Source of the DNA: Psychrosphaera sp.
Lineage (GTDB): Bacteria; Pseudomonadota; Gammaproteobacteria; Enterobacterales; Alteromonadaceae
Assembly (NCBI GenBank): GCA_965200905.1
Contig: CBDAVN010000015.1
Span: forward strand, 112,332-136,331
Direction: 5' to 3'
DNA length: 24,000 bases
The notes under the pieces were generated by a model. That model was not told the DNA's origin. It saw only the letters and a program-made list of their open reading frames with translations, and searched no databases. The translations under genes and the position numbers were made by a program. How positions within the stretch are numbered: the first letter of the stretch is position 1; each line of letters begins with the position of its first letter. Below are positions 13,062-21,306 of this stretch, piece by piece.

Positions 13062-14315
13062 ATGTTGTCCTGTCGCACTATGAAATTAAACTTTAACCAT
13101 GCATTTAATATTATGAAAAATATTCCCCCCTTTAACTTTATTATACTAATCAACTTGATCTTTATTCCTTTAATAAGTAAAGCAAGTACAAATGACTTTT
13201 CAGGTTCAATAGAAGCGCAAAGTTTTATTTTTACTGAATCTCCCCGTTTGGCTGCTCAACCAAGTACTCAATTATCCACTATTGCCGAGCTAGAGTGGTA
13301 CCAAGATTGGAACTCGGGTAGCAGCAGCCTTACATTTAAACCTTATCTAAGGGTTGATAATCGAGATAGCGAACGTAACTTGCTTGATATAAGAGAGCTA
13401 GCTTGGAGATATACACAAAAAAACTGGGAGCTTGGTTTTGGTATATATAAGGTATTTTGGGGGCAAACAGAATCACAACATAGAGTCGATATTATTAACC
13501 AGACAGACACCCTCGCGAGTGTAGATGGTGAAGAAAAGCTCGGGCAACCCATGGTACAACTGTCTTTTTACCGAGATTGGGGCGCACTAGAGTTTTATTG
13601 GCTACCTATATTTAGACCACAACAATTTGCCTCAGAAAAAAGTCGATTTATTCCCGAACTTAGCATCACAAAAGAAAACTCCTACCAATCAGCAAGGAAA
13701 GATAAAGCAATGGATTGGGCTATTCGATGGAGCCAGATGTTAGGAGATCTTGAGCTAGGTCTATCTCACTTCTACGGCACTACAAGGTCTCCTCAGCTAA
13801 ATAAGATTAATCAAGATAACGAAGTGCTATATCAGCCTTACTATAATCGCATTGAACAAAGTGGATTAGATCTGCTCTACTTATGGAATGAGTGGGTTTG
13901 GAAATTAGAGGCAATTCACAGAAGTTTTAAAGGTGGTGCATTTACGGCGGTAACAACAGGGTTCGAATATACTCAAATAGACTTGTTCCAGTCAGCCGTA
14001 GATCTAGGCTGGGTAGTCGAATATTCGACTAACTCCAACCCCAACTTATCAGGCGACATTGCTCAGAATGATATTTTTATTGGTAACCGACTTACATTTA
14101 ATGATGCGGCCGATAGTGAACTGCTGTTCGGCATTAACCAAGATCTAGGTGACTCTTCTTCATACTCAGTAATATTAGAGGGCAGTACCCGCTTAAGTGG
14201 TAGCCTTAGAGCAACATTAAACCTTTATCTATTCAATGCCAGTGACCCTCTAGACCCAATGCATTACTTGGATAAGGATGACTTTATGCAATTAAATCTA
14301 GAGTACTTTTTCTGA
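13062..14315 (+). CDS. Secreted protein, probable outer-membrane beta-barrel (family not recognised)
   Basis: 417 aa. In-frame ATGs at 13080 and 13113 are alternative starts; 13113 gives a canonical signal peptide MKNIPPFNFIILINLIFIPLISKA/ST. It has alternating amphipathic strands and a C-terminal aromatic end ...LNLEYFF, typical of BAM substrates. Confidence 0.6.
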   Translation: MLSCRTMKLNFNHAFNIMKNIPPFNFIILINLIFIPLISKASTNDFSGSIEAQSFIFTESPRLAAQPSTQLSTIAELEWYQDWNSGSSSLTFKPYLRVDNRDSERNLLDIRELAWRYTQKNWELGFGIYKVFWGQTESQHRVDIINQTDTLASVDGEEKLGQPMVQLSFYRDWGALEFYWLPIFRPQQFASEKSRFIPELSITKENSYQSARKDKAMDWAIRWSQMLGDLELGLSHFYGTTRSPQLNKINQDNEVLYQPYYNRIEQSGLDLLYLWNEWVWKLEAIHRSFKGGAFTAVTTGFEYTQIDLFQSAVDLGWVVEYSTNSNPNLSGDIAQNDIFIGNRLTFNDAADSELLFGINQDLGDSSSYSVILEGSTRLSGSLRATLNLYLFNASDPLDPMHYLDKDDFMQLNLEYFF

Positions 14316-15065
14316 ACACACTCTGCTGCTTGTTAGTAGTTGTGAAACTATATATTCTTGGTCATCGTCAATAAAAAAGTGATCACCATTAAAAGTTTTA
14401 ATAGAAGTTTGACCTGTCGTTAATTCGAACCATTCACGCATTTCTTTATCAGATATACAGTCCTCATTACCAAGCCATGCATCAATAGGACAGTTCAGTA
14501 ATTCACAGTGGCTAAACTGGTACTGTTCATTTAGTCGAAAATCAGCACGTATTATAGGCATAAAAAATGCCATCAACTCGTCACTTTCATATATTCTCGC
14601 AGGAGTGCCATTTAACTTTTTCAGCTCAGCTAAAAAAAGATTATCAGGCAGCGACGAAATCGCTGTAGAAGTCAATGGTAAATTAGGCGGCCGTTTAGCT
14701 GACACTATCAACTTTCTGGGACTCTGTAGCCTAGCTCCCTGAATTCTCATAGCTAGCTCATAGCTAATTAACGCTCCTAAGCTATGGCCAAAAAAAACAT
14801 AAGGAATATCCAGCACACTTTGAATATCTTTATACAGAGCTTCAATAAGTTGTGACATTTCTGAACATAAAGGTTCAACAAAACGTCGCTCTCTGCCAGG
14901 GTAACATATAGCAGTTAGCTCAATATCTTTAGGTAGAAAATTAGACCAATTTCTAAATACTGCTGGACTACCTCCTGCATATGGAAAACAGAATATTCTT
15001 AGCTTCGCATCAGGATTCGGATTAAAAGTATCTAACCAGATTGAACTACCGTAATACTTTGACAT
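14298..15065 (-). CDS. Type II (editing) thioesterase of NRPS/PKS clusters
   Basis: 255 aa. It has FCFPYAGGS near the N-terminus, the GHSLGA nucleophile elbow and a C-terminal GDHFF (His of the triad). Its 3' end overlaps the convergent 13062-14315 gene by 18 bp. Confidence 0.9.
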   Translation of the reverse strand: MSKYYGSSIWLDTFNPNPDAKLRIFCFPYAGGSPAVFRNWSNFLPKDIELTAICYPGRERRFVEPLCSEMSQLIEALYKDIQSVLDIPYVFFGHSLGALISYELAMRIQGARLQSPRKLIVSAKRPPNLPLTSTAISSLPDNLFLAELKKLNGTPARIYESDELMAFFMPIIRADFRLNEQYQFSHCELLNCPIDAWLGNEDCISDKEMREWFELTTGQTSIKTFNGDHFFIDDDQEYIVSQLLTSSRVCSEKVL

Positions 15066-15117
15066 ACTATTGCTCAGTTTCGAAAGGTTCAGAGATTTTA
15101 ATAGATTAGTTCATATG

Positions 15118-15145
15118 GTACACCCGTCACATTAGACAGGTGTAC
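15118..15145. promoter_or_regulatory. 28-bp inverted repeat (GTACACCCGTC-N6-GACAGGTGTAC) containing a lux-box-like core (minus strand ACCTGTCTAATGTGACGGGT, 15122-15141) upstream of the thioesterase gene
   Basis: The 11-bp arms have one mismatch. The core matches the lux-box ends ACCTGT/ACrGGT. It sits 57 bp upstream of the thioesterase ATG (15065) and 18 nt downstream of the luxR-family stop. It could therefore also fold as a hairpin without a U-tract at the end of the luxR transcript. Confidence 0.45.
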
Positions 15146-15163
15146 TTATAAAAATAACGTTAG

Positions 15164-15904
15164 TTATAAAGAAGGCTTAACTAAGCCTTGCATAATTGCT
15201 TTAGCAACAGCATGTTGCCGGTTAGATGCGTTAAGCTTATTCATAACACTACTCAAATGAAACACAGCTGTACGTTCTGAAATATTCAAAATGGTAGATA
15301 TTTCCCAGGCTGTCTTCCCCTCACAAGCCCAAAAAATACACTCTTTTTCTCGAGATGACAGTTTAACTTCTTGTTTAGCAAAAGACTCTATATTTATACG
15401 TAGGTAGTTGTTGAGTAGTCTCGTTGCAAAGCTTTGTGCACTAGCCAAGCGATTTGTAAAACCATCTGCAAACACATTACTGTCTGACACAACTAAACTC
15501 AAAGTAGCAATCTCACCACTAGGTGCCTTCATTGGTATTGAGATACCATTTACTAACCCATATTGTTTGGCTTTTTCCATTACTTTGAGATGTTCAGCAC
15601 TACTGTAACCTTCCGACTGAATCAGTTGATCCCATCGAATAGGTACCGTATTTTCGAAGCAATAGTTCACCACGGGGTCATTTTTCTGTAGGTTTTCTGA
15701 AAAGTAGATATCAGTCCAATCCTTTGGATAGTTACTTAATACACCAAGTTTTGGTGATGTTAGCGTTTCAGTATCACAAACACCAAAAAGAAAAAAATCA
15801 GCCCCCAATAGTTTGCATAGTTTTTCACAAATATCCTTGAGCTGTTTTTTATCTACAGCGGTATCAAGATCATCAATTAGCCGCACAAATTCAATATTAT
15901 TCAT
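15164..15904 (-). CDS. luxR: LuxR-family AHL-responsive transcriptional regulator (autoinducer-binding domain + C-terminal HTH)
   Basis: 246 aa with GAGGGAA upstream. Conserved AHL-pocket residues are visible (KDWTDIYF, NDPVV, IRW, GLVNGISIP). The C-terminal LuxR-type HTH reads LSSREKECIFWACEGKTAWEISTILNISERTAVFHLSSVMNKLNASNRQHAV. Confidence 0.9.
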   Translation of the reverse strand: MNNIEFVRLIDDLDTAVDKKQLKDICEKLCKLLGADFFLFGVCDTETLTSPKLGVLSNYPKDWTDIYFSENLQKNDPVVNYCFENTVPIRWDQLIQSEGYSSAEHLKVMEKAKQYGLVNGISIPMKAPSGEIATLSLVVSDSNVFADGFTNRLASAQSFATRLLNNYLRINIESFAKQEVKLSSREKECIFWACEGKTAWEISTILNISERTAVFHLSSVMNKLNASNRQHAVAKAIMQGLVKPSL

Positions 15905-16373
15905 GGTTCCCTCAGACGTTTATTCTTATTGTCATTTCCTTTGCCACATTAAACTTCTCAGACAAACTATTAGCCTTGTATGCTATGTTGAATAAGTTAC
16001 AGTCAAGATAAGATCAAAACAATACTTTTTGTTAACCAAATGAAAATAAAGTTAATTATGGACCACCAAAAATTAAAATATTGCCATTAGAGCTATTTCC
16101 ATTCCCTAGCAAATTTAACGTGAAATAGTATTTCAATATAAATTTATTCCAAAATATTGACTTCCGCCTTAACCAACTATAAATAAAGGGATAGGGCTGT
16201 TCAAACACTTAACATTAGCAATACTCCATCGTGCGAGTTCCAATGTTCTCTTTTTTATGGTTGATTCCTACAACCATCAAAACTTAATTTCTGGGCGAAC
16301 TATTATACTTCTGGGTTGATTTGTATCCATTGAAAAAAACAAGCGATAAAAGATACTGATAACATAAATAAAC

Positions 16374-16388
16374 AAGCCATGACGGCTT
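16374..16388 (-). terminator. Weak hairpin (AAGCC-N5-GGCTT) followed on the minus strand by a T-rich tract; possible terminator of the 307-aa gene
   Basis: Seen by eye about 100 nt downstream of the stop at 16488. The stem is only 5 bp (plus 3 bp after a bulge), and the T-tract is interrupted (TTATTTATGTT). Confidence 0.25.
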
Positions 16389-16487
16389 TGTATTTAGCAT
16401 AGCTAGAAGGTAGACAGCTAATCTTTTTAGCTTTGACAAGCTCCGATACCGTAACAAGTTGCAGCACTAATCCTCATTAGTAAATGA

Positions 16488-17378
16488 TTAAGGCTTTGAT
16501 TGTAGGTGTACTATTAACCCTTGGGTTACCGTTTTTTGATAATTTAAATGCCAGTTTCCCACACGGTCAACAAAAGCAGAAAGCTCGCTGATAACTGCCA
16601 AATCATTTGATTTAGGTAACGCCAATACAATAGCTTCATCAATCAGTTTGTTTTTGATACAAGTAAATAGAAAGTCAATGTCGGTAAATAATGAAACTAC
16701 AGCCTTCTGCTTAGAACCTGTATATTTTTGTAACTTCTGTAAACTGGAAATTGAAGCAATTTCATTGCGTTCAATGACATCATTCATAATATTAAAGCAG
16801 GGAGAGAAATATAAAATATCAGCTTGATTAAAAGTATAAAATATAGCAGAAGACTCAGCTAACGGCTTTAGGGCACTCTCAATGAAACCAAAACTGCTCT
16901 GCATAAGAGAAATTGTGTTGGCATCGAAATTTCCCTGCCAAACCGATATACCAATAGTCCAAGGTCTCCCTCTGAGCTTCAGTGATAGTGCACCAGATAC
17001 CAACCCTTTAGCATGAGGCCTTGACTGTGGAAAAAAGCTGATCTGCCCAGAGTAACTTGAGCTCCAATCGCGAAATATTGGGTCACGGAGATAGTCTGGC
17101 AATTTGTGTGCAATATGAAGTTGTTCACAATTTGATCGAGTAATCATATCCAGCAGCATTTTTGTATTGCAGTTTTCGATAATTGGTTCGCAAGAACAGT
17201 AAAGATAGGCAATTTTCTCACTGTGTTGATTTATCAAATAACTGCTGCGATGTTTTTCGAATCCCGTCATACCAAATTGACTGCCAAGTATGTGGCCATT
17301 TTGATCAACTGCAGTAAATGCAAAGCCAGCACGTAAAGAAATAGAGCAGGCAAGTGACAAAGTATAATCGGATAACAT
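16488..17378 (-). CDS. Hypothetical protein between the luxR- and luxI-family genes (no recognisable motif)
   Basis: The ORF track gives 307 aa from a TTG at 17411. The first ATG is at 17378 (MLSDYTL..., 296 aa). It is a long uninterrupted ORF in an otherwise AT-rich region and has no signal peptide or TM segments. I could assign no family. Confidence 0.6.
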   Translation of the reverse strand: MLSDYTLSLACSISLRAGFAFTAVDQNGHILGSQFGMTGFEKHRSSYLINQHSEKIAYLYCSCEPIIENCNTKMLLDMITRSNCEQLHIAHKLPDYLRDPIFRDWSSSYSGQISFFPQSRPHAKGLVSGALSLKLRGRPWTIGISVWQGNFDANTISLMQSSFGFIESALKPLAESSAIFYTFNQADILYFSPCFNIMNDVIERNEIASISSLQKLQKYTGSKQKAVVSLFTDIDFLFTCIKNKLIDEAIVLALPKSNDLAVISELSAFVDRVGNWHLNYQKTVTQGLIVHLQSKP

Positions 17379-17497
17379 TTTTGACAATGGTTGCGACAAC
17401 GGAGGAAACAATTTACTACAAGCCTAAGCCCGTTTGCGCAAACACAGGCAATAACTAAAATGGCCAGCAAAACTATCAAATCAAGACAACAGAAGAA

Positions 17498-17517
17498 ACC
17501 TGTAACTTCTTACAGTT
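17498..17517. promoter_or_regulatory. lux-box-like dyad ACCTGTAACTTCTTACAGTT (CTGTAA-N4-TTACAG)
   Basis: It has 6-bp perfect arms, and 14 of 20 positions are self-complementary. It lies in the 247-bp divergent region between the 307-aa gene and the luxI-family gene. Its position suits a minus-strand promoter: GATAGT -10-like at 17472-17477 puts the box centre at about -42. Confidence 0.55.
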
Positions 17518-17576
17518 ACCATAAAAATAAAATTTAAGTGATTGTTATCAAAATAAAAAATAAGAAAATAGAGACA

Positions 17577-17596
17577 TACCGCAAGATCTGACAGGT
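17577..17596. promoter_or_regulatory. Second, less symmetric lux-box-like site TACCGCAAGATCTGACAGGT upstream of the luxI-family gene
   Basis: The right half ACAGGT is a perfect lux-box half-site. It shares the 9-mer GCAAGATCT with the box at 6274-6293. The centre is about 72 bp upstream of the luxI ATG, and a -10-like TAGTCT at 17619-17624 would put it near -44. The left half-site is poor. Confidence 0.4.
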
Positions 17597-17658
17597 AACC
17601 ATAGCCTTATTTCCTCACTAGTCTTTTTGAAACAAACTTACGACACGGACAGTGAGAA

Positions 17659-18237
17659 ATGAATAAAGTATATTTTGCGACGTCAAACCAACAAAACCAC
17701 GATTTAATTGAACAGATATATAGCTTACGGCATCAGACGTTTATAAAGAGGCTTGGTTGGGATATTACATCTGATAAGGGATTGGAGCAGGATAAATTTG
17801 ACTTTCTTGATCCTGTTCATATCGCAGTTACCGATACAAAAGACATAGTAAAAGGATGCTGGCGTGCCCTGCCTACGACTGGAGACTACATGTTGAAATC
17901 AGTCTTCCCACAATTATTACAAGGTGAAGATGCTCCCCAACAGGAGGATATTTGGGAGATAAGCAGACTCGCAGTACAAAAGTACTCTTCAAAGCCAGAA
18001 CATGGTTACATTAGTAACATATCTCTCGACCTAGTTCGTTCCTTTTATGACTTTGCTCAACTACATAACATTAGTTCATTTGTAACTGTCACTACAGTCG
18101 CTTGCGAACGAATGCTGAGACAATTAAACGTTACTTTGCGCAGAATGGGACAAGGCAAAGCACTGTGGATAGGCAAAGAATTATCAGTGGCTATTAAGAT
18201 CGAGGTAAATGAATCGTTAAAGATTTACAGAAACTGA
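17659..18237 (+). CDS. luxI: Acyl-homoserine-lactone synthase (LuxI family)
   Basis: 192 aa. It carries LuxI-family conserved blocks: LRHQTFIKRLGWDI, EQDKFD, CWRALPT and WEISRLAV. Confidence 0.9.
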   Translation: MNKVYFATSNQQNHDLIEQIYSLRHQTFIKRLGWDITSDKGLEQDKFDFLDPVHIAVTDTKDIVKGCWRALPTTGDYMLKSVFPQLLQGEDAPQQEDIWEISRLAVQKYSSKPEHGYISNISLDLVRSFYDFAQLHNISSFVTVTTVACERMLRQLNVTLRRMGQGKALWIGKELSVAIKIEVNESLKIYRN

Positions 18238-18551: not shown

Positions 18552-19064
18552 GAAAACATTTAGACATCCCCATGAATGCTAGTATTGCGATAAAATACAT
18601 GGATGTTTTTACAATCACTATGAGGTTAGGAGGCGGAACATAAATGTCTGGAACATTTATCAACAGCTTCAGCTGGCCGCTTGCGGTGAAATACATGGAC
18701 GTATTTCATAATCGAACAGAGCGAAGCTCAGTGAGGTTGCCTTAGTCTCCATTTTACTCCCCCAACGAAAGTACAGGGAATACAGATCTACACAGAAAAA
18801 CTTAAAATAAGAAATTAACTTTGAGAATAAAATATTTGGGGAATTAAATGGTGCCTCGAGGCGGACAAATATTTCTGGAAAATATTTGGACATCCGTACG
18901 GATGGTCGCGAAGCGATAAACGACATGGACGTTGTTTACAATCTATAATGAGAGACGCGGAGAGGCATCTTTACTTCCCATAATTCGCGTACAACAAAAA
19001 CGGTCAGAACAATATTTAAACTTATTTTCAACTATGGAAATTTTAGACTAATTTAGGAAGTAAA
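18552..19064. repeat. Degenerate tandem repeat region: three diverged copies of a unit that begins (tRNA orientation) with the 3' end of tRNA-Phe
   Basis: Unit 18857-19073 aligns by eye with 18628-18856: gaggcggacaaatatttctggaaaatattt vs gaggcggaacataaatgtctggaacattta; ..gcgataaacgacatggacgttgtttacaatc vs ..gcggtgaaatacatggacgtatttcataatc; both end in ..taaatggtgcctc. A shorter third copy lies at about 18552-18627. The conserved roughly 30-bp cores are at 18587-18616, 18683-18713 and 18913-18943. Confidence 0.7.
18849..18865 (-). repeat. 17-nt copy of the tRNA-Phe 3' end (TCCGCCTCGAGGCACCA on the minus strand); att-type direct repeat
   Basis: It is identical to the last 17 nt of the longer fragment at 19065-19110, and the flanking AAA is also shared. 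No tRNA body is present upstream of it. Confidence 0.7.
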
Positions 19065-19110
19065 TGGTGCCTCGAGGCGGAATCGAACCACCGACACGGG
19101 GATTTTCAAT
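19065..19110 (-). pseudogene. Truncated tRNA-Phe (3' 46 nt: anticodon loop GAA through CCA); likely island-distal att direct repeat
   Basis: The minus strand reads ATTGAAAATCCCCGTGTCGGTGGTTCGATTCCGCCTCGAGGCACCA. The first 18 nt and the T-loop are identical to E. coli tRNA-Phe (..GGGGATTGAAAATCCCCGTGTC..GGTTCGATTCC..CACCA). The sequence 5' of it (gggagta) does not continue the anticodon stem, D-arm or acceptor stem. Confidence 0.8.
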
Positions 19111-19479
19111 TACTCCCGATAACAGTAAAAGTATGCATTATCTGTGTGTATTTTCGAATGAACGTTGAATAGCGTACCGTTTCTAGCCCTACGTGACTTT
19201 TCAATAGGTCGTATTAGAGTTGATAAATTTACAAAATATCCCAAGCGTTTTAGTGATACAAAGTTGACTCCTAACTGCACTACTTTCAACCCTGCTGGAA
19301 TATCTCCATAAATTGAAATTACATCCATCACTGTTCAAACAGCTTCTAAAATTCCTAATATTTCATTTTAGGAATAATTAGGAATGAAAGGTTTAGTTTA
19401 CTCGGGATTGTGCTTGACGTGCTGACTCAGCCGGTTACATTAATAAATGTGCTCCTTTTTATTTTTTAAGGAGTAAACC

Positions 19480-19677
19480 ATGATTTTATTAGCTGCGTGT
19501 TTTGTTTTTGCTTTCCTTGCCATTTTTGTTCAAATATTCATCAAAAGAACTAAACATAAAGAGCTGTTGCTCAAAGGCTTTCTTCGTATGAGTTTTATTT
19601 CATTATGTGCCTTTATATTATTAAAGGCACAATTTATGAGTGTCATTCTCGATTTAGCTAAAATTTTAACTCGCTAA
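19480..19677 (+). CDS. Small hydrophobic protein (65 aa, two predicted TM helices)
   Basis: A strong AAGGAG lies 6 nt before the ATG. A plausible sigma70 promoter is present (TTGACG 19414-19419, 16-nt spacer, TACATT). Sequence is MILLAACFVFAFLAIFVQIFI..SFISLCAFILLKAQFMSVIL. No homology was recognised. Confidence 0.5.
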   Translation: MILLAACFVFAFLAIFVQIFIKRTKHKELLLKGFLRMSFISLCAFILLKAQFMSVILDLAKILTR

Positions 19678-19704
19678 TTTCCTTTTATAAGCTCTGAAGC
19701 TACT

Positions 19705-20451
19705 TTACGTTCCAGGAATCAATAAAGGATGTGGGAAAAATCGGTTCATCAACAAATCTACTCGGCGCTTTAATTTTACATATTTAGAATAAACGCTAGG
19801 ATTACCATAATTTTCCTTTAAGAGTTCATCAACATACCTTGAAATTTGATTTAATTTTTCAACACTTTCATGGGATATAAAATTCATTTCGTCTACGCGA
19901 GAATGTTGCTCAAGGGCATCCCCTATTCTTGTTAAACAATCAACTCCCCAAAAACCATCTTGGTAATCATGATAAGCCATTGATGGTAAAGAATTTGAAG
20001 CACTTCGTAAGTGAGTCACGACATCTCGACTAAAAACAACTCTAGGCCAGTCAGCATACTTACTTTCTAGCTGGTAAGCCTCAATCATTGCTTTCCCGAA
20101 AACATTACTTTCTTTATGAAATAGTTCTCCGTATGAGATCCCCCCTCTCAAGCTTATTCTGTGTTCCAAAAATACATCTTCTAGCATTTTAACTGTTGCA
20201 GCTACCAACATATTCAAAGATTTAACAACATCCTCTTCCTTTGCTTCTATAGAAAAAACAATACAATCGCTGAAAGTAGTAGCTTTAGGCTCATATCCTA
20301 TTTCTCTTAATAGCTGTTTGTTATTCATTAGCTCTTGTCGTACTGAGTTAACGATATTTAGCACGAGGTGCCCTTTTTCACTTAGAACCAAATTGCTAAA
20401 GCCTAGAATATCTAAAAATAAACAAAGGTTTTTGGTGTACTTTGTATCCAT
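19705..20451 (-). CDS. Minimal class III nucleotidyl-cyclase-fold (cyclase-homology/GGDEF-palm-like) protein
   Basis: 248 aa. The motif order matches class III cyclases. LCLFLDILGFSNL corresponds to FxDIxGFT (first metal Asp, D14). TTFSDCIVFSI corresponds to KxIGDxxMxxF (second Asp, D62). ISLRGGISYGELF corresponds to lRiGihtGpv. NVFGKAMIEAYQLES corresponds to dvxGxxVNxAaRlES. The start lies 7 nt after the upstream gene's stop. Confidence 0.65.
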   Translation of the reverse strand: MDTKYTKNLCLFLDILGFSNLVLSEKGHLVLNIVNSVRQELMNNKQLLREIGYEPKATTFSDCIVFSIEAKEEDVVKSLNMLVAATVKMLEDVFLEHRISLRGGISYGELFHKESNVFGKAMIEAYQLESKYADWPRVVFSRDVVTHLRSASNSLPSMAYHDYQDGFWGVDCLTRIGDALEQHSRVDEMNFISHESVEKLNQISRYVDELLKENYGNPSVYSKYVKLKRRVDLLMNRFFPHPLLIPGT

Positions 20452-20458
20452 CTATTAA

Positions 20459-21166
20459 CTACTTCTTATATCTTTCAAATATTTTATTAATGATCACAGA
20501 AACAATTTCATAATCACCAACAGCGCCACCATGTAAACAGTTGGAGCCATGAGCCATTATATTTCTAGATCCCGGTAATGTTTCGCACAATACATCTAAA
20601 TAATTGTAATCATATTGAACGCCAGCATAATCTATCTCTGCTTCATCCCACTCGTATGATGATATGTTCTCTTCACTCATTTTTTTTGAAACGTAAAAGC
20701 GATATTCCCTTTCAGCTTTTCGAGCTCTTCCGTCTCGCCATACTTTGAAATCTTCATTCCTGATCAAGTTATGTTCAGAAATATATGCTAAGTTCAGCTT
20801 TAATCCCCTTGAAAATCGCCCAGTTCCTTTCGGTAACTGCTTATTCTTATTTTTGCGATAATTCTCTAGCTCTACAATACCAATGCACTCACGAATTGCT
20901 TGCTCAAGCGTTACAAACAATTGATGTTGTGCTACAGGAAAAAACCTATAAACATAAAACGCGTGTAGGAATAAATTTCGAGCTGTATCAAATTGAATAA
21001 CTAACTCTTCTGGGACATGAGAACCCAACTCATACTTGGCTATCGCTTGATGAAATTGCTCAATCCCAGTGTCACCAAATTCAATATTGCGCACATCGGG
21101 TAACAAAATATTTGACGGTGTTCTAAAGGCCTCAGCTGGAAACTCATCAATGTTTAATTTATTCAT
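20459..21166 (-). CDS. Stand-alone HEPN-like protein (Rx4H motif)
   Basis: The ORF track starts at TTG 21199. I prefer ATG 21166 (MNKLNIDEF, GGAA 6 nt upstream; 235 aa). The motif LPGSRNIMAHGSN (R-N-x3-H) sits about 35 residues from the C-terminus. It is preceded by long helices (VPEELVIQFDTARNLFLHAFYVYRFFPVAQHQLFVTLEQAIRE), as in HEPN/DUF4145/Abi-type four-helix bundles. I saw no CARF, SAVED or cNMP-binding motif. Confidence 0.55.
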   Translation of the reverse strand: MNKLNIDEFPAEAFRTPSNILLPDVRNIEFGDTGIEQFHQAIAKYELGSHVPEELVIQFDTARNLFLHAFYVYRFFPVAQHQLFVTLEQAIRECIGIVELENYRKNKNKQLPKGTGRFSRGLKLNLAYISEHNLIRNEDFKVWRDGRARKAEREYRFYVSKKMSEENISSYEWDEAEIDYAGVQYDYNYLDVLCETLPGSRNIMAHGSNCLHGGAVGDYEIVSVIINKIFERYKK

Positions 21167-21306
21167 TATTATTTCCATTCCTTGAGTTCGAAGAGCCAAA
21201 TCAATGTTGCTCTACTCTCAATTCGATTGACATTAACCATATCGATTCTCTTATAAAGGATTAATATCTAATACAAATCCTCACTCCTCTCGTACAATAA
21301 GGCTCT

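Follow-up and report, generated by a model that had tools for sequence, protein, structure and literature searches.

The 24,000-nucleotide (nt) stretch of Psychrosphaera sp. DNA analysed here (contig CBDAVN010000015.1, positions 112,332 to 136,331; the whole stretch is called the window) carries a two-gene cassette in which a gene for a 235-amino-acid (aa) HEPN-like protein lies directly upstream of a gene for a 248-aa protein with the predicted fold of a class III nucleotide cyclase (Table 1). Three successive open reading frames (ORFs) on the minus strand encode, in order, a 581-aa DUF6119/TIGR04141 protein, the 235-aa protein and the 248-aa protein. The original prediction, made from the DNA letters alone, had placed the two smaller ORFs 7 nt apart, and reading the sequence bore this out: the TAG stop codon of the 235-aa ORF (20461-20459) is followed by TTAATAG and then by the ATG of the 248-aa ORF at 20451, with a purine-rich AAGAAG 8-13 nt 5' of that ATG. 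This layout would make it possible for the two ORFs to be co-transcribed, perhaps with translational coupling. Because both are conserved across many homologues, we consider them real genes and not chance ORFs. The only other copy of the pair is in a Psychrosphaera metagenome-assembled genome (MAG; locus L001, identical to L087, L numbers denoting comparison loci), where it has 88% nt identity to the window by blastn and a spacer of 3 nt.

Table 1 Features of the window and of comparison loci. Positions are those of the window unless a locus is named.
Feature	Position	Strand	Basis or remark
248-aa cyclase-fold ORF	19705-20451	minus	Downstream gene of the pair
235-aa HEPN-like ORF	20459-21166	minus	Upstream gene of the pair; the mechanical ORF reaches a TTG at 21199
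Intergenic spacer TTAATAG, 7 nt	20452-20458	minus	Read off the sequence; possible translational coupling
Cassette in common with the Psychrosphaera sp. MAG	19701-21174	minus	blastn, 88% nt identity; flanks unrelated
DUF6119/TIGR04141 protein, 581 aa	21307-23052	minus	Pfam E 9e-100
tRNA-Phe(GAA) 3' fragment, 45 nt, anticodon loop to CCA	19064-19112	minus	Attachment (att) scar at the island end; sequence read
Second, shorter copy of the tRNA-Phe 3' end, ~20 nt	18846-18865	minus	Tandem att scar; direct repeat and sequence read
26-nt repeat, three copies	18585-18936		77-100% identity
65-aa ORF	19480-19677	plus	Two predicted transmembrane helices
LuxI-type synthase gene	17659-18237	plus	
LuxR-type regulator gene	15164-15904	minus	
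Gene group with luxI/luxR-type genes	14298-18237		
HEPN-like gene in restriction–modification operons	L082:6001-6720, L083:6001-6723		
121-aa protein	L002:7622-7987, L003:5281-5646, L005:7632-7997		
HEPN_AbiU2 gene and cyclase-fold gene	L072:7192-7947 and L072:7992-8837		

We modelled the 248-aa protein with AlphaFold2 (AF2) on an alignment of 31 homologues. The model has a mean predicted local distance difference test (pLDDT) score of 87.7 and shows a class III cyclase fold (residues ~1-140) followed by a C-terminal helical domain. Foldseek returned 79 PDB matches to it at E<1e-3, and all 50 of those listed are class III adenylyl or guanylyl cyclases. At the sequence level, Pfam PF00211 (Guanylate_cyc) matched with an E value of 0.014, under its gathering score, and a profile search of PDB sequences with the family gave weak matches to class III cyclases (best E 0.0097). 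The class III cyclase fold and its two metal-binding Asp residues, both part of the original prediction, are thus confirmed. The further claim that all four cyclase motif blocks are present holds in part. FLDILGF (D14), FSDCIVF (D62) and LRGGISYG (R102-G104) are invariant in the 31 homologues, as are, residue by residue, F12, D14, L16, G17, F18, S61, D62, R102, G103, G104, G119, P136 and K223, and D14 and D62, which correspond to the Asp of the beta1 FxDIxGF and beta4 xxD motifs of class III cyclases, align with the metal Asp positions of the cyclase bPAC. The fourth block, GKAMIEAYQLES, aligns with the GDxVNxAxRLE block of cyclases but lacks its Asn and Arg. Class III cyclases have their substrate-defining Lys four residues ahead of the second metal-binding Asp, and their helix alpha4 supplies an Asn and an Arg (NxxxR) for the transition state. 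A hidden Markov model (HMM) alignment to 5mbg (bPAC) puts T58 at the Lys position and I123 and Q127 at the Asn and Arg positions, an assignment made by sequence alignment and not by superposition; position 127, Gln here and Arg in canonical cyclases, is variable within the family. A homodimer of the protein could bind a nucleoside triphosphate (NTP) with metal, yet would lack half of the canonical cyclase machinery.

The same family is found in P2-like Burkholderia prophages (tblastn of phage genomes), where its gene lies between int and the portal gene. The phi52237 homologue, gp8 (YP_293707.1), is encoded between the integrase gene and portal gene Q, and a gap of 3 nt separates it from the upstream gp9, a DUF4065 protein. 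The 248-aa protein matches gp8 by BLASTP at 1e-17 (~25% identity over ~225 residues), the family HMM matches it at 4.4e-42 and hhalign of the family against gp8 gives 99.8%. These alignments indicate homology to gp8 over essentially the whole length of the 248-aa protein. The gp8 protein has been described as PanT(Bur. phage) and listed as a 'nucleotide cyclase' toxin in a PanAT toxin–antitoxin (TA) pair (Kurata 2022, PMC8832971). Expressed alone, PanT(Bur. phage) is toxic in E. coli and arrests growth; it is neutralized by, and co-purifies with, the upstream Panacea antitoxin, inhibits transcription mainly and translation next, and induces RelA-dependent ppGpp, with ATP and GTP not depleted (PMC8832971). 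This Burkholderia prophage protein is the only member of the cyclase-fold family for which growth arrest has been shown (PMC8832971), and a literature search for the mechanism of the cyclase toxin found no follow-up study.

PanT and the 248-aa protein share the motifs FxDILGF, FSDxIV, RGGI and GPAxxxAYxxES, both lack the canonical cyclase Asn/Arg pair, and each is encoded by the second of two closely spaced genes that form a unit on a mobile element. They differ in the upstream partner, which is a 235-aa HEPN-like protein here and not a DUF4065/Panacea antitoxin: the 235-aa protein has no DUF4065 match in Pfam, and a phmmer search with phi52237 PanA found no homologue in any locus fetched for the family. 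They differ also in what is known of them, since toxicity, complex formation and the effect on transcription have been established for PanT, whereas the 248-aa protein is known from its sequence. The pair had been said to fit no described architecture; the cyclase-fold protein, as a PanT homologue, is nevertheless of a described, if poorly understood, kind. The homology makes a role for the cyclase-fold protein as signal generator or as antitoxin less likely than one as toxin.

For the 235-aa protein, 26 close homologues were aligned and then 80 diverse ones, the latter drawn from an exhaustive HMM search that collected a family of 1505 clusters (at 50% identity) with E<=1e-3. D24, N64, E88, R201, N202 and H206 are invariant in both alignments; the last three belong to an RNIMAH motif, and the N-terminal region of the family carries the invariant D24/R26 and N64. 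The AF2 model (pLDDT 88.2) is all-alpha, with helices at residues 53-68, 75-95, 189-205 and 215-232. E88xxxR92, in which R92 is conserved in at least 90% of sequences, lies within the second of these helices, R201-N202 end the third, the loop after it opens with H206, and a helical insert of ~90 residues (96-188) separates the two. In the definition of the HEPN superfamily by Anantharaman et al. 2013 (PMC3710099), the features are an Rx4-6H-type motif, an acidic Ex3[KR] motif in helix 2 and an insert between helices 2 and 3, and the 235-aa protein agrees with it point by point (Ex3R, RNx3H, long insert). In having RNx3H, Ex3R, an insert and an all-alpha structure it resembles the AbiD/Abi2, AbiU2 and DUF4145 proteins and the nuclease domains of PrrC/RloC (PMC3710099). 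Unlike recognized HEPN families, it has no match to a model above threshold (Pfam, NCBIfam or PADLOC HEPN models, searched with the family) and no significant structural match in the PDB; Foldseek against BFVD likewise gave nothing significant, and the family profile had no significant match among PDB sequences, with one spurious match of a phage gp21 to the insert. Fourteen sub-threshold matches to five HEPN Pfam families and weak PADLOC matches to Cas13b, Csm6 and AbiD were recorded, and hhalign comparisons of the profile with individual AbiU2 and DUF4145 sequences gave no useful information. We conclude from motifs and model topology that the 235-aa protein very probably belongs to the HEPN superfamily, in keeping with the original prediction. 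Profile scans detected no cyclic nucleoside monophosphate (cNMP)-binding, CARF or SAVED domain in the protein or its homologues, and the absence of such a sensor had been noted correctly.

We examined the genomic neighbourhoods of both families. One degenerate pattern retrieved 289 relatives of the cyclase-fold protein from species-representative genomes, spanning many bacterial phyla and archaea, and the best 80 loci were inspected; members are carried by plasmids and P2-like prophages as well. In about half of the loci the gene stands without a closely linked neighbour on either side, and 177 of 206 operonic neighbours were singletons. A search for a conserved small-ORF antitoxin adjoining the solo genes found none. 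Tight neighbours include type I restriction–modification (R-M) subunits, an MmeI-type enzyme, AbiH, AbiU2 and Fic, with the cyclase-fold gene placed between hsdM and hsdS in L069 and directly after hsdR in L077; a few neighbours are housekeeping genes (HAD hydrolase, tRNA methyltransferase). Homologues at ~50% identity have no HEPN partner, and in three of these loci (L004, L006 and L007) there is no tight upstream gene. A Eubacteriales MAG (L072) has a bona fide HEPN_AbiU2 protein (Pfam E 1e-18) encoded 41 nt upstream of a cyclase-fold gene, which is a second, independent adjacency of HEPN and cyclase-fold genes, with a different HEPN family. Searches of Pfam, NCBIfam and PADLOC with the window proteins and 130 family members returned only sub-threshold cyclase and HEPN hints, and the expectation that the pair would match no named system in PADLOC held when the check was run. 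The cyclase-fold family is widespread and is missed by all three collections.

The HEPN-like family has a distribution of its own. Homologues at 57-67% identity (L081, L172, L174 and L176) and at 45-47% identity (L082 and L083) have no cyclase-fold gene beside them, 30 of 67 loci have no tight neighbour, and in roughly ten the neighbour is HsdS or HsdM. The Alkalimonas and Rheinheimera homologues (L082 and L083) belong to type I R-M operons in which their genes precede hsdM by 27 nt and HsdR carries an N-terminal DUF4145 domain, which we take to be of HEPN type. R-M-associated HEPN proteins have been described (PMC3710099), and the 235-aa family likewise occurs within type I R-M operons. A distant Burkholderiales homologue (L084-L086) lies in a Tn7-like (TniQ/TniB) element between genes for a trypsin-like (Trypsin_2) protease and a KAP-family NTPase, a set of genes that looks like transposon-borne defence cargo; a DUF6602 protein and two unannotated proteins are encoded nearby. 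The HEPN-like family behaves as an autonomous module. When the HEPN-like HMM was run on the best 80 cyclase-family loci, it was positive in 1 of the 79 other loci (L001, the same cassette), and 1 of 80 metagenomic HEPN-family loci (L124) had a cyclase-family gene, with an opposite-strand gene between the two. The original prediction had inferred a dedicated two-component system and had named beforehand a lack of co-occurrence elsewhere as counting against it; the inference fails because the families do not co-occur elsewhere (1/79 and 1/80 loci).

The cassette was predicted to sit in an AT-rich island next to tRNA-Phe att scars, and the sequence agrees: GC content falls from ~0.39-0.43 to 0.31-0.36 past ~19 kb of the window, and two tRNA-Phe 3' fragments lie next to the low-GC part. 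No intact tRNA (ARAGORN) and no RNA gene (ARAGORN, Rfam) was detected in the window. The 45-nt tRNA-Phe fragment occurs also downstream of the cassette in L001. We conclude that the cassette lies at the distal end of a tRNA-Phe-integrated island, which extends past the window, where RadC, ParA-like and further island-type genes follow. The DUF6119 protein was considered as a third component and rejected: in neither L001 nor L081 is it conserved beside the pair, and in L001 an unrelated 517-aa protein with coiled-coil and transmembrane (TM) segments takes its place. Its gene is therefore separate cargo of the island. For this 581-aa 'sporadically distributed' protein PADLOC had no match and a literature search gave nothing relevant. 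A 26-nt sequence (TTGCGATAAAATACATGGATGTTTTT) is present three times, interleaved with the two tRNA-Phe fragments; successive integrations may have left these repeats behind, or they may be integrase arm-type sites. Between the scars and the cassette, and convergent with the cyclase-fold gene, is an ORF of 65 aa, for which two TM helices are predicted and a canonical Shine–Dalgarno sequence (AAGGAG) lies 7 nt before the ATG; it is not in the Psychrosphaera copy, and could encode a small membrane protein, either a hok-like toxin or an unrelated one. The island is bordered directly by genes for a LuxI-type acyl-homoserine lactone synthase and a LuxR-type regulator, which adjoin thioesterase, JmjC/cupin, MFS and MMPL genes, and this group may form a quorum-sensing-controlled metabolite cluster.

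We lean towards the view that the cassette consists of two autonomous toxin-type defence genes, a PanT-type cyclase-fold toxin and a solo HEPN RNase from a family associated with R-M systems, which lie stacked in a defence-type island and are co-transcribed, and that the pairing of HEPN and cyclase is probably incidental. Folds, motifs, toxin homology, independent phyletic distribution and defence-island contexts are the data behind this view. The 235-aa protein would be a stand-alone HEPN RNase, latent and metal-independent, that uses E88, R201, N202 and H206 and would cleave RNA once triggered. The 248-aa protein would bind NTP-Mg2+ through D14, D62 and R102 and catalyse nucleotidyl transfer, in a reaction that is probably not canonical cAMP or cGMP synthesis given that the protein lacks the substrate Lys and the transition-state Asn/Arg. 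Each gene would act in an abortive-infection-like manner, independently of the other; we infer these enzymatic activities, their triggers and the independence of the two genes. Several observations weigh against two autonomous genes. The genes are only 7 nt apart in the window and 3 nt apart in L001. Homology between the two copies begins 8 nt before the first ATG and stops 4 nt past the second stop codon, and both flanks differ, a 278-aa gene and a RelE/antitoxin pair being inserted in L001 between the cassette and the shared tRNA-Phe scar; with homology limits this exact and the flanks swapped, the pair behaves as a unit over that short distance. In Rheinheimera and Colwellia, a conserved 121-aa protein with a basic N-terminus and two hydrophobic segments is encoded ahead of a cyclase-fold gene of ~50% identity; the two ORFs are 3 nt apart in L005, 13 nt apart in L003 and overlapping in L002. 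Three clades of the family thus have different tightly coupled upstream genes (for the HEPN-like protein, the 121-aa 2-TM protein and PanA), which is the pattern of partner-swapping TA modules. PanT, moreover, needed its antitoxin in its native context (PMC8832971). There are only two independent observations of the pair, so that genomics proves neither linkage nor independence.

An alternative is a TA-like pair, in which the cyclase-fold protein would be the toxin and the upstream HEPN-like protein would neutralize it by binding (type II) or by hydrolysing its product, the latter a route paralleled by the small alarmone hydrolases that neutralize toxSAS toxins. As in panA-panT, the partner gene comes first and the gap is 3-7 nt, PanT itself has validated toxicity and requires an upstream antitoxin (PMC8832971), the cassette boundaries are exact with flanks swapped, and close relatives have the 121-aa protein as another tightly coupled upstream partner. 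We nevertheless regard such a pair as unlikely. The ~50%-identical genes of L004, L006 and L007 lack a tight upstream gene and most of the family is solo, so that its members as a rule need no antitoxin; the HEPN-like family, for its part, retains an invariant catalytic-type motif and is overwhelmingly found without a cyclase-fold gene, unlike a dedicated antitoxin. Reversing the roles gives a type VII-like TA system, the second reading of the original prediction, in which HEPN would be the toxin and the cyclase-fold enzyme would neutralize it by nucleotidylation, as in HepT-MntA. The likeness to HEPN-MNT is that a HEPN protein with an intact RNx3H (Rx4H) motif adjoins, in tight coupling, a nucleotidyltransferase-type enzyme with an intact two-Asp nucleotidyl-transfer site, and loss of the cyclase-specific Lys, Asn and Arg would suit a transferase over a cyclase. 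The enzyme here, however, has a cyclase fold and is not a Pol-beta nucleotidyltransferase, the gene order is the reverse of the typical mntA-hepT, the pairing is not conserved, and the enzyme's homologue is itself a toxin, PanT being toxic by itself in E. coli (PMC8832971), which is not how an antitoxin behaves. HEPN members at 45-67% identity have no cyclase-fold neighbour, which means that such an antitoxin is dispensable for the HEPN protein. We hold the type VII-like arrangement to be quite improbable.

In a signalling system of Pycsar or type III CRISPR kind, the first reading of the original prediction, a cyclic nucleotide made on infection would directly activate a minimal HEPN RNase. 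Pycsar combines the PycC cyclase with a cNMP-binding TM or TIR effector, and the cassette resembles it in having a class III cyclase-fold enzyme with metal-binding Asp residues in a small operon and a defence-type island. In type III CRISPR systems HEPN effectors are activated by cyclic oligonucleotides, which speaks for signalling, as do the unrelated AbiU2 protein upstream of the L072 family member and the 121-aa 2-TM partner, which superficially recalls swappable effectors. The differences from Pycsar are larger: the HEPN partner has no cNMP-binding domain, nor a CARF or SAVED sensor, the enzyme lacks the catalytic Lys, Asn and Arg of canonical cyclases, and the pairing is not conserved, as the two families do not co-occur. 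PADLOC gave no match for the window protein at E<=1 and no Pycsar match in 50 family members at E<=0.01. To our knowledge, the signal generators of known systems are not toxic alone, whereas PanT is. The toxic homologue, the missing residues, the lack of a sensor domain and the lack of co-occurrence make signalling the weakest of these three alternatives, and we judge it very improbable. That neither gene has a role in conflict or defence, both being decaying or regulatory passengers of the island, seems barely probable at all: some family neighbours are housekeeping genes, but bacterial and archaeal members of the two families alike keep their catalytic-type residues without variation, R-M, Abi and prophage-hotspot settings recur for each family, and one homologue is a validated toxin.

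The cassette itself is made of known kinds of gene, and two points stand out beyond it. The PanT-type cyclase-fold toxin is part of a large family that lacks annotation and associates with defence contexts. Family-wide loss of the Lys, Asn and Arg, PanT included, with the metal site kept argues against a simple toxic cAMP/cGMP-like mechanism and would predict some other nucleotidyl-transfer chemistry, which makes the proposed 'toxic cyclic nucleotide' mechanism doubtful and open to experiment. A TA cassette of two enzymes, with either the HEPN-like protein hydrolysing a toxic nucleotide or oligonucleotide made by the PanT-type cyclase-fold toxin or the HEPN RNase being silenced through nucleotidylation by the cyclase-fold enzyme, is a speculative idea that we rather doubt; if true, it would provide a handle on what the PanT-type 'cyclase' makes. 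Since both families slot into R-M operons and defence hotspots, they are reasonable candidates for single-gene anti-phage systems.

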